A DNA stretch of 34,162 bases from Escherichia coli (lineage in GTDB: Bacteria > Pseudomonadota > Gammaproteobacteria > Enterobacterales > Enterobacteriaceae), in the NCBI RefSeq assembly GCF_003334315.1, contig NZ_QOWR01000050.1. One strand, given 5' to 3'. A program made the translations under genes and the position numbers. Positions 1 to 2,226 of this stretch are shown here, one piece after another. Numbering within the stretch: position 1 is the first letter of the stretch; every line of letters starts with the position of its first letter. The notes beneath the pieces were generated by a model, which saw only the letters and a program-made list of their open reading frames with translations, did no database searches and was not told where the DNA came from.

Positions 1-81
1 AAGTCGCTGTCGTTCTCAAAATCGGTGGAGCTGCATGACAAAGTCATCGGGCATTATCTGAACATAAAACACTATCAATAA
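1..81 (+). CDS. insB: IS1 transposase InsB, C-terminal 26 codons (5'-partial; runs off window start)
   Basis: Frame 1 from base 1 translates KSLSFSKSVELHDKVIGHYLNIKHYQ then TAA at 79-81, the InsB C-terminus. Confidence 0.85.
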   Translation, partial: KSLSFSKSVELHDKVIGHYLNIKHYQ

Positions 82-96
82 GTTGGAGTCATTACC
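1..96 (+). mobile_element. IS1 insertion sequence, 3'-terminal 96 bp (insB 3' end plus right terminal inverted repeat); element continues beyond window start
   Basis: Bases 1-96 read AAGTCGCTGTCGTTCTCAAAATCGGTGGAGCTGCATGACAAAGTCATCGGGCATTATCTGAACATAAAACACTATCAATAAGTTGGAGTCATTACC, which matches the IS1 right end as I recall it, ending in the terminal repeat ...GGAGTCATTACC at 85-96. Confidence 0.9.
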
Positions 97-901
97 CAGG
101 CTGGTAACCCAATTGCTGATCGGTCAACTCCAGAATCTCATTGTCAGGCATATATCTCGCCATACTTTCAATCGTTTGTTCATCATTGCTATTAATAAGT
201 TGTTTGCGTAGGTTAGCTGAAATTCCTTTAAGCCTTGGGAGAGTTCGGATTATGGCAAGATCAAATGTCGCAATATCTCGTCCTTCAAATGCAGCAACGT
301 TGCCTTCATCCAGCATTTGCAATTCCTGCACTAACTCAGGAGAAGGCTTAGGGCGAAACAGCGCTTCTTTTTTCATCTGATTACAGACATTCCCTGCCAT
401 GCGAATATTGCTTCGCTTAAAAATTTCTTTCAGAGCATCTTCATCATTTATTAGACCCCAATAATATGCATCAGGATTTATTATCATCAGCGCTTTTTTG
501 ACATTTTCAGTGTCATGTTTGTCACTCGCACGGACCATGAATTCACTATTTGTCGAAGACGCAACAACAGGTGCAATTATGTCATTGATAAATATCCCAC
601 GCGCATTAATACTCCCCTTAATCGTAGACGGATTATCGTAATATGAGTCGATAAATACCAGTCCACTTGCATTTATCGAACCGGTAATTAACAGTGGTGA
701 ATCCGCAACTATATTCGTTGCCGTCACGTTACCGAGAATAACCCATGGATTAGAAAGAGAGAAAGTGGAAATATTACCTTTGACTGTCAAATTCCCAAGA
801 ACAATCAATTTTTGATTACTCTCTATATTACCTTCTACCACTAAATCGCCACGATGCACTTTCCAGTTCGATGCAGATAAACCGAAGGGGACAAGATTCA
901 C
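92..901 (-). pseudogene. IS1-truncated ORF encoding an unrecognised repeat-rich (possibly beta-solenoid-like) protein, in the position K-12 ydbD occupies downstream of ydbC; 269 codons as drawn from a GTG at 899-901
   Basis: The ORF reads from 901 down to 97, and its TAA stop (92-94) lies inside the IS1 terminal repeat, so the coding sequence is cut by the insertion. There is no in-frame ATG before codon ~122 and no convincing ribosome-binding site at the GTG. An out-of-frame signal-peptide-like mini-ORF with a good site lies upstream (see findings). I do not recognise the protein by sequence; the assignment is by synteny only. Confidence 0.5.
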
Positions 902-1100
902 GCTACTGTTGATAGCTTGTTCAACTTGTTGTTTATCTTCAGCGGTAGCCGCAGAAAAAATTGTTCAATATCAACTGCATTTGCAACACATCGAAGTTCC
1001 GCCTATACTGGAAGACTCAGCATAAACAGGGGAAGTAAACCTATCCAGCCGCAAATCCTGGCCTTAAACATATGCACTCCATGCCATTAAAAAAGAAACA

Positions 1101-1124
1101 AAAGGGAAATGCATCTTTCCCTTT
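1101..1124 (-). terminator. Rho-independent terminator downstream of ydbC
   Basis: Inverted repeat AAAGGGAAA (1101-1109) / TTTCCCTTT (1116-1124) with a 6-nt loop; on the minus strand the hairpin is followed by a U-rich run (from the A-run at about 1088-1100). Confidence 0.6.
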
Positions 1125-1134
1125 TGTATATTCG

Positions 1135-1995
1135 TTATTCTCGCGAAATACCATCCAACGTAGACAACACTTCCTCAGAAAGTTGCAATTTTTCAGCAGC
1201 CATATTCTCCCGTAAATGCGCAACCGAAGACGTCCCTGGGATCAGCAAAATATTCGGTGAACGCTGTAACAGCCACGCCAGCGCCACCTGCATTGGTGTT
1301 GCACCCAGGCTCGCAGCAACATCGGAAAGTGTGGACGATTGCAGCGGTGTAAAGCCCCCGAGCGGGAAGAACGGCACGTAGGCAATGCCATCGTGGGCCA
1401 AAGCATCAATCATTGCATCATCAGCACGGTGCGCGATGTTGTATTCGTTTTGCACACAGACAATTTCGGCAATCTTGCGCGCCTCTGCAACCTGCGTCGG
1501 TGTGACGTTGCTCAGGCCAATATGTTTTACCAGGCCTTGTTGTTGCATCTCTGCCAGCACGGTCAGGCTGGCCTCAATCGATCCTTCCGCTGGGCCATGA
1601 CCATCCCCCATCATAACGCGCAGGTTAACCACATCCAGCACGTCCAGCCCGAGATTACGTAGATTATCGTGCACCGCTTTTTGCAGCTCTGCCGGAGAAA
1701 ATGCGGGCAACCAGGATGCGTCCTCTCCACGCCGCGCACCAATTTTAGTGACAATTGTCAGGTCGTCAGAGTAAGGATAAAGCGCTTCGCGGATAATCTG
1801 ATTGGTGACGTGCGGACCATAAAAGTCGCTGGTATCAATATGATTGACGCCCAATGCCAGCGCCTCACGCAGCACGGTTATAGCGACGTGGCGATCTCGT
1901 GGGGGGCCAAAAACTCCAGGACCTGCCAGTTGCATCGCGCCATAACCAAGACGGTTAACGGATTTTGTACCGAGAGTAAATGTGTTGCTGCTCAT
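1135..1995 (-). CDS. ydbC: Aldo/keto reductase family oxidoreductase YdbC (286 aa)
   Basis: 286-aa ORF starting MSSNTFTLGTKSVNRLGYGAMQLAGPG, typical of the aldo-keto reductase family; same length and position relative to paaY as K-12 ydbC. Confidence 0.8.
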   Translation of the reverse strand: MSSNTFTLGTKSVNRLGYGAMQLAGPGVFGPPRDRHVAITVLREALALGVNHIDTSDFYGPHVTNQIIREALYPYSDDLTIVTKIGARRGEDASWLPAFSPAELQKAVHDNLRNLGLDVLDVVNLRVMMGDGHGPAEGSIEASLTVLAEMQQQGLVKHIGLSNVTPTQVAEARKIAEIVCVQNEYNIAHRADDAMIDALAHDGIAYVPFFPLGGFTPLQSSTLSDVAASLGATPMQVALAWLLQRSPNILLIPGTSSVAHLRENMAAEKLQLSEEVLSTLDGISRE

Positions 1996-2125
1996 CGCAC
2001 CCTGCCCTGTAATAAAACGGATTAAGAAAAATCAGTATAGAAACGAAAAGAGATAAATAATGCGAAGGTGTAAACAAGATTACTGGATGAGTTGCTCTGT
2101 TATCCTGAAAGACACCAAAACAAAA

Positions 2126-2149
2126 CGCGTCAAGCGCCGCATCCGGCAA
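2126..2149. repeat. REP-like (repetitive extragenic palindrome) fragment
   Basis: Minus-strand reading GCCGGATGCGGCGCTTGACGCG shares its first 13 nt with the REP consensus GCCGGATGCGGCG... as I recall it; intergenic location between convergent/tandem genes. Confidence 0.35.
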
Positions 2150-2150
2150 T

Positions 2151-2181
2151 AAAAAAACCGCAACCTGTATCAGCGTTGCGG
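2151..2181 (-). terminator. Rho-independent terminator after paaY (end of the paa transcription unit)
   Basis: Stem CCGCAAC (2158-2164) / GTTGCGG (2175-2181); on the minus strand it is followed by U7 (the A7 run at 2151-2157). Lies 46 bp downstream of the paaY stop. Confidence 0.7.
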
Positions 2182-2226
2182 TTTAGGGATCACATGCTAA
2201 AAATTAGAACGTCCAGCATCAGGACG

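Follow-up and report, generated by a model that had tools for sequence, protein, structure and literature searches.

The window analysed here is a 34,162-nucleotide (nt) stretch of Escherichia coli contig NZ_QOWR01000050.1, and the gene under study, ydbD, lies on the minus strand near its left end (Table 1). Comparison of window positions 1–1200 with 5,426 complete E. coli genomes by megablast places the region downstream of pdxI (ydbC), and the matching gene in those genomes is annotated as 'ydbD: DUF2773 domain-containing bactofilin'. In K-12 MG1655, the gene is b1407 (NP_415925.2, 'DUF2773 domain-containing protein YdbD') and has 768 codons. Nucleotides 1–976 of K-12 ydbD align with window positions 1071–97 with 98.5% identity and a single gap (blastn). 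The window copy resembles that of K-12 in lying directly 3′ of pdxI and in having the same start codon and Shine-Dalgarno sequence, and the synteny of pdxI, paaY, and paaX is as in relatives. An earlier sequence-only reading of this DNA spoke of a gene 'in the ydbD position'; the position was right, and the alignments identify the gene more precisely as ydbD itself, the orthologue at its usual place. The window contains the front 42% of the gene, namely codons 1–325 and one base, the first, of codon 326, less a single T. When the two point lesions described below are repaired, the piece encodes 325 amino acids (aa), of which 322 are identical to YdbD of strain 2018-06-4CC and 318 to that of K-12. 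The gene is AT-rich, and the GC content of window positions 1–1200 is 0.40, compared with 0.50–0.56 beyond them.

Table 1 Features of the ydbD region at the left end of the window (ORF, open reading frame)
Feature	Position	Strand	Basis or remark
IS1 right end: last 26 InsB codons (stop 79–81) and right terminal inverted repeat GGTAATGACTCC, read on the minus strand from base 96	1..96	+	
IS1/ydbD junction (lesion 3)	96..97		minus strand ...TACCAGCCTG joined to GGTAATGAC..., after K-12 ydbD nt 976
Mechanically called ORF, 269 aa, GTG start to TAA (94–92) inside IS1	92..901	-	GTG is Val58 of intact YdbD
5′ fragment of ydbD	97..1071	-	blastn to K-12 b1407; differs from CP53, HS30-1, and BHD6 at base 1005 only
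Part of ydbD coding for the predicted beta-helix (bactofilin-like) domain	530..865	-	residues 70–181
T6 run where intact alleles have T7 (lesion 2)	955..960	-	codons 38–40 (TTT TTT TCT); −1 frameshift
Amber TAG for CAG, Gln23 (lesion 1)	1003..1005	-	alignment; position −2 of predicted signal peptidase I site VQA/E
Start codon ATG of ydbD	1069..1071	-	aligns with annotated starts in relatives
Shine-Dalgarno sequence GGAG	1077..1080	-	sequence; conserved in K-12, CP53, and ST12468; spacer TGCAT, 5 nt
Terminator-like hairpin of pdxI, 12-bp stem, tail TTCTTTTTT	1098..1127	-	ΔG −16.2 kcal/mol, z −4.9
pdxI (ydbC), intact, upstream neighbour of ydbD	1135..1995	-	ORF and annotation in relatives

Lesions and reading frames of the window copy

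The ATG at 1071 is the annotated start of ydbD in K-12, CP53, HS30-1, and 2018-06-4CC. From this codon, a frame of 22 codons (MFKARICGWIGLLPLFMLSLPV) is closed by the TAG at 1005–1003, where K-12, CP53, and ST12468 have CAG. Beyond the TAG, the same frame continues with AELRCVANAVDIEQFF and enters a T tract at 960–955 that is exactly six T long (on the plus strand, an A6 between G954 and T961), whereas the tract of K-12 has seven. Strain 2018-06-4CC carries the local haplotype of the window with T7 (GAA CAA TTTTTTT CT) and encodes an intact YdbD of 768 aa, whose N-terminus, ...VDIEQFFSAATAEDKQQVEQAINSSVNLVPF..., matches the conceptual fusion ...IEQFFSAATAEDKQQ... derived from the window. Similarly, the addition of one T to ydbD of HS30-1 restores an ORF of 768 codons without stops. 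The sequence-only reading had described the GGAG motif with its 5-nt spacer and ATG, the signal-peptide-like mini-ORF ending at the TAG, and the continuation of that frame to the A6 tract, all of which can be read directly on the minus strand. It had also predicted that one extra nucleotide would join the mini-ORF to the long ORF downstream, and 2018-06-4CC with its T7 encodes exactly that fusion. The annotated starts of ydbD in K-12 and in relatives coincide with the ATG, and the mini-ORF and the long ORF are two parts of one gene.

The long ORF begins at a codon internal to ydbD, and no GGAG- or AGGA-like motif is present within 15 nt upstream of its GTG, in agreement with the earlier statement that it has no ribosome-binding site of its own. 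IS1 contributes two bases of its last codon, GGG, and the whole of the TAA at 94–92. The boundary between IS1 and ydbD is therefore at 96/97, and the ydbD part ends at 97 rather than at 92, the limit given in the sequence-only reading. These features identify the 269-aa ORF as an out-of-register remainder of ydbD and not as a separate gene.

The 96 nt of IS1 match copies in thousands of E. coli records, annotated as 'IS1-like element IS1A/IS1B family transposase'. The minus strand reads ...TACCAGCCTG followed directly by GGTAATGACTCC... at the junction, and the element is opposite in orientation to ydbD. No ydbD sequence past nt 976 was found by blastn anywhere in the window, which hence contains no DUF2773 (residues 688–768), and none of the 5,426 complete genomes searched holds the junction of IS1 with nt 976 in one piece. 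The copy combines a premature stop codon, a frameshift, and an interruption by a mobile element and, judged from its sequence, is a pseudogene. Chance is of no concern, since nearly identical intact orthologues serve as the reference for the lesions. All three hits on the one gene are present as the sequence-only reading had listed them, with the refinement that they differ in age.

Age of the lesions and recurrent decay of ydbD

Window positions 97–25000 are essentially identical to a group of genomes that includes HS30-1, H7, CP53, BHD6, and ST12468. The window differs from HS30-1 by six substitutions in 28.9 kb (28,904 bp), one of which is the TAG. The exact 62-mer with T6 occurs in 65 of the approximately 3,500 complete E. 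coli genomes that have the site. The T6 frameshift is the sole lesion of ydbD in HS30-1, CP53, and BHD6, in which the gene has its full length of 2306 nt and is flagged as 'frameshifted' by the Prokaryotic Genome Annotation Pipeline (PGAP; DKQ63_RS11870, EAH50_RS13985, and VB057_RS11920, respectively). These pseudogenes lack the amber codon and the IS1 junction and are otherwise identical to the window over 97–1071. Because T6 is present in 65 complete genomes, it is to be regarded as a real, inherited allele of the lineage and not as a homopolymer sequencing error.

The distribution of the amber codon is different. The exact 61-mer with the TAG occurs in one of 3,886 complete genomes with the locus, that of EC931 (NZ_CP049118.1, L004 6030–6032), which has the same amber on another haplotype (T7 and six other differences), together with an IS1 copy at nt 766 and a deletion that extends into ynbB. 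On the haplotype of the window, the TAG was found in none of the complete genomes. The amber codon of EC931 is either a recurrent mutation or the result of recombination with a breakpoint inside a 44-nt interval. In these genome comparisons, the TAG on this haplotype and the IS1 junction are thus private to this strain. A deamination hotspot of the Dcm methylase was considered for the change from CAG to TAG and rejected, since the context GTACAGGC is not CCWGG. Because one T added to the HS30-1 gene restores all 768 codons, the frameshift is the oldest of the three lesions, and the other two, amber codon and IS1 junction, arose later in an already dead gene.

The clade of the window has also lost genes downstream of ydbD. 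A ynbA remnant of 201 nt is fused to ynbC without its N-terminus, and ynbB is gone (L001 5606–7104; L006 30406–32070; L008 5395–6063). This region lies past the IS1, outside the window. The ynbA–ynbC deletion is older than the frameshift of ydbD, because it is also present in 2018-06-4CC, which has an intact ydbD.

Inactivation of ydbD is not restricted to this clade. In K-12 numbering, IS1 was found in the gene at positions ~620, 766, 920, 976 (the window), 1076, 1477, 1554, and ~2035; this list is a lower bound, because the search favoured one orientation and the 5′ half of ydbD. By these counts, which are not normalised to neighbouring genes, ydbD looks like a repeated target of IS1. The interrupted genes of 042, ST12468, PSS-08-2, TA8571, EC931, and 2016-17-292 resemble that of the window in that the transposase gene is convergent to ydbD, and PGAP calls their 5′ piece an incomplete 'polymer-forming cytoskeletal protein'. 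The IS1 events in those strains are independent of that in the window, because their insertion points differ from 976. Strain PSS-08-2 carries two IS1 copies within one ydbD.

Independently of the lineage of the window, 13 complete genomes with the K-12-like TCA haplotype also have T6 in place of T7, for example LD27-1 (L013 2532–4837), in which the gene is annotated as frameshifted and ynbA is intact. No T8 allele was found on this common haplotype among the complete genomes. In the protein database, a 628-aa form of YdbD that ends in the IS1-encoded VMLPTY comprises 1,855 sequences, a form starting at Met179 comprises 2,489, and a 434-aa form 905, compared with intact clusters of 8,466, 2,541, and 4,820 sequences; some of the truncated fragments may be contig-edge artefacts. 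Clusters of 711 aa were considered as calls of the GTG-901 type from frameshifted alleles, which proved wrong, as one variant carries a C-terminal frameshift and the other an in-frame deletion. The recurrent decay fits a dispensable, weakly expressed gene.

Predicted structure, export, and expression of YdbD

Intact YdbD contains DUF2773 (PF10971) at residues 688–768 (Pfam, E = 2e-45). The Bactofilin profile (PF04519) matches residues 78–141 below threshold, with an independent E-value of 0.05 and 14.3 bits, and no member of the YdbD family reaches an E-value of 0.001 or better against it. A profile of the N-terminal domain retrieved no bactofilin among PDB sequences, searches of the PDB with the protein and the profile gave nothing useful, and neither NCBIfam nor PADLOC has a family for YdbD. 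A HMMER scan of 1.84 billion representatives yielded 166 relatives, approximately 40 of them full-length at 17–31% identity, and several of the distant full-length relatives match LRV/HEAT repeat families.

About 30 of 41 aligned family members, including relatives of 17–30% identity, begin with typical signal peptides, which are followed by a conserved Trp. The predicted signal peptide of E. coli YdbD has n-, h-, and c-regions, with K3 and R5, a hydrophobic core of 15 residues, and cleavage at VQA/E. The AlphaFold2 model of YdbD (predicted local distance difference test, pLDDT, 87.6; predicted template modelling score, pTM, 0.74) consists of a disordered signal peptide, a beta-helix at residues 70–181, and an alpha-solenoid at 188–768. 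The suggestion of the sequence-only reading that the gene encodes a secreted repeat protein is reasonable in the light of the signal peptides of the family and of the modelled beta-helix. Compared with the K-12 protein, the window copy lacks the alpha-solenoid past residue 325 and DUF2773.

The modelled beta-helix of YdbD is right-handed, has approximately six turns, and superposes on solved bactofilins. A Foldseek search of the PDB with the full-length model returned generic HEAT/ARM solenoids only, with template modelling scores of 0.1–0.28, which says no more than that the fold is an alpha-solenoid. Bactofilins such as BacA (2N3D) and that of Thermus (6RIA) are cytoplasmic, whereas YdbD has a signal peptide and an alpha-solenoid of about 580 residues. 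Moreover, secreted beta-helix proteins, including tapirin, autotransporter passengers, TpsA domains, and putative adhesins, match the helix of YdbD as well as or better than bactofilins do. According to the model, the term 'bactofilin' used by PGAP describes the fold of YdbD, and with its predicted export the protein is not a classical cytoplasmic bactofilin. The family names 'bactofilin' and 'polymer-forming cytoskeletal protein' may be misleading with respect to localisation. The genes around two distant homologues have nothing in common with those at the E. coli locus, and no function can be deduced from genomic context.

The terminator-like hairpin of pdxI ends 17 nt before the Shine-Dalgarno sequence of ydbD, and the 64-nt gap between the two genes contains no sigma-70-like promoter on the ydbD strand. 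Because the hairpin precedes the gene and the gap lacks such a promoter, transcription of ydbD must come from read-through or start inside pdxI, in keeping with the very low expression reported for the gene. A 3.9-fold induction of ydbD by sigma-E has been reported, and the gene carries the label 'induced by methylglyoxal' (PMC2731931). The gene is named incidentally in evolution experiments, in connection with sweeps or substitutions. Our literature search on DUF2773 found nothing relevant.

Proposed history of the copy and alternative explanations

Based on the lesions and their distribution among relatives, a history of the window copy can be proposed. Window positions 97–1071 very probably represent a dead ydbD, inactivated by ordinary gene decay in three successive and unrelated events. 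The T7 run of codons 38–40 lost one T in an ancestor shared with HS30-1, CP53, BHD6, ST12468, and others, and with this loss translation from the true ATG ends after 58 codons. In the line of this strain, codon 23 probably changed from CAG to TAG, which would shrink the product to a 22-residue signal-peptide stub. In the same line, IS1 became joined to ydbD after nt 976, and the end of the element provides the TAA of the out-of-frame ORF. The later hits may have been neutral once the frameshift had lifted selection. IS1 favours AT-rich targets, and the AT-rich body of ydbD (40% GC, compared with 50–56% in its neighbours) may make the gene a good target. The 269-aa ORF would be a by-product of the lesions and is presumably not expressed as a protein of its own.

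Several points weigh against this history. The TAG rests on a single private base. The neutrality of the later hits is what we infer from the order of events; the private substitution was examined as a sign of relaxed selection and discarded as such, since one of six substitutions in 975 of 28,904 bp is not a significant excess. A fitness screen reported ydbD to be important in K-12 despite expression below 1 part per million (bioRxiv 10.1101/038851), which is awkward for a gene so easily lost and which its authors could not explain. Finally, the sequence-only reading spoke of truncation by IS1. The end of the element does supply the stop codon, but truncation as such is not established, because the window opens inside IS1, and the 3′ 58% of ydbD may simply lie across the element.

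One or both of the point lesions could instead be errors of sequencing or assembly, with the IS1 junction as the sole real event. Errors in the length of homopolymers are a well-known artefact, no complete genome shares the TAG on this haplotype, and the window has a further private insertion of 2 nt in another pseudogene. Nevertheless, we consider an error very unlikely overall: for T6 it is excluded by the 65 complete genomes, each sequenced independently, that have the allele and do not otherwise differ from the window here, and for the TAG it is improbable, as substitution errors in a consensus are rare and six substitutions against HS30-1 indicate a close relative rather than a noisy assembly. 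The T run could also be a phase-variation switch, in which slippage between T6 and T7 reversibly toggles an exported protein; the window would then represent the OFF state. In favour of a switch, the run is near the start of the coding region, and T6 occurs on two local haplotypes, CAA (65 genomes) and TCA (13), so that the contraction has recurred. However, contingency tracts are usually longer than seven bases, T6 is present in only about 2% of genomes, no T8 was found on the common haplotype, and the T6 genomes around the window resemble a single clonal group. The window copy could not switch back in any case, since restoring T7 would leave the amber codon and IS1 in place, and other lineages inactivate ydbD by unrelated lesions. 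The pattern fits plain decay, and a switch is hardly credible. The least probable proposal, which we regard as close to negligible, is that the ORF from the GTG at 901 encodes a functional, N-terminally truncated, cytoplasmic beta-helix protein. The frame is long and keeps the whole beta-helix region, but it lacks a ribosome-binding site and starts at the internal codon for Val58. Its product would miss the family-wide signal peptide and 443 C-terminal residues including DUF2773, its stop comes from IS1, and PGAP treats equivalent frames in relatives as pieces of pseudogenes. A broader proposal, improbable but less so than the preceding ones, is that ydbD is lost repeatedly because its loss is advantageous in some niches, with the T7 tract and the AT-rich body as built-in weak points. 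Bearing on it are the occurrence of T7-to-T6 and CAG23-to-TAG each on two haplotypes, IS1 at at least eight distinct positions, the truncation of roughly a quarter of the catalogued YdbD sequences, and the additional ynbA–ynbC deletion in the clade of the window.

The third lesion could be what an IS1-mediated adjacent deletion or rearrangement left behind, with loss from this position of the 3′ part of ydbD and possibly of ynb genes, which we consider possible but somewhat doubtful. In EC931 and TA8571, IS1 in ydbD is followed directly by a remnant of ynbB, with loss of the ydbD 3′ sequence, of ynbA, and of a portion of ynbB, while in the fox isolate 2016-17-292 the IS1 in ydbD runs into a floR/IS26 resistance island. 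The window has no ydbD 3′ sequence elsewhere, and the IS1 copies at its two ends, which are in direct orientation, can serve as substrates for recombination. On the other hand, the cases examined include at least as many simple insertions, in which both halves of ydbD remain and the target is duplicated (ST12468, 042, and both copies in PSS-08-2). A simple insertion at nt 976 would be accompanied by a 9-bp duplication, ACCAGCCTG, with ydbD resuming at about nt 968.

The second IS1 is at the right end of the window (33613–34162), where its left terminal repeat, GGTGATGCTGCC..., begins at 33960 and is followed by the start of insA. It cuts an ORF for a recombinase of the Rac-prophage type (pinR-like), and the same junction is present in 21 complete genomes, including HS30-1 and BHD6. 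Since both IS1 ends have the same orientation, the window in its entirety is a segment between two IS1 copies, apparently an IS1-bounded contig, and a potential substrate for IS1–IS1 recombination. The truncated recombinase gene contains a private 2-nt insertion of AT at 33949–33950, 9 nt before the IS1 end (ATGATATGATGCA, compared with ATGATGATGCA in HS30-1 and 20 other genomes).

The frameshift of this pseudogene is already flagged where sister genomes are annotated in RefSeq. The diagnosis of a decayed copy is correct but, for an E. coli gene that is known though uncharacterised, matters little alone. The ORF at 92–901 should not be annotated as a protein, and the private TAG and the IS1 junction at nt 976 can be used as strain markers. 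With its homopolymer slippage and IS1 hits, ydbD joins the E. coli genes that decay recurrently, and this recurrence is a small clue to the function of the exported 'bactofilin-like' YdbD and of the adjacent ynbABCD.

Two further observations concern the surroundings of the gene. The gap between paaY and pdxI is only about 230 bp (window 1996–2226), and the autotransporter gene ydbA is absent from it, as in CP53 and HS30-1; ydbA is present in K-12, where it is a pseudogene split by insertion sequence elements, and in LD27-1 and PSS-08-2. Far from ydbD, at window positions 30050–30170 on the minus strand, the small RNA MicC (Rfam RF00121, 125 bits) lies between ydbK/nifJ, encoding pyruvate:ferredoxin oxidoreductase, and ompN, as it does in K-12.

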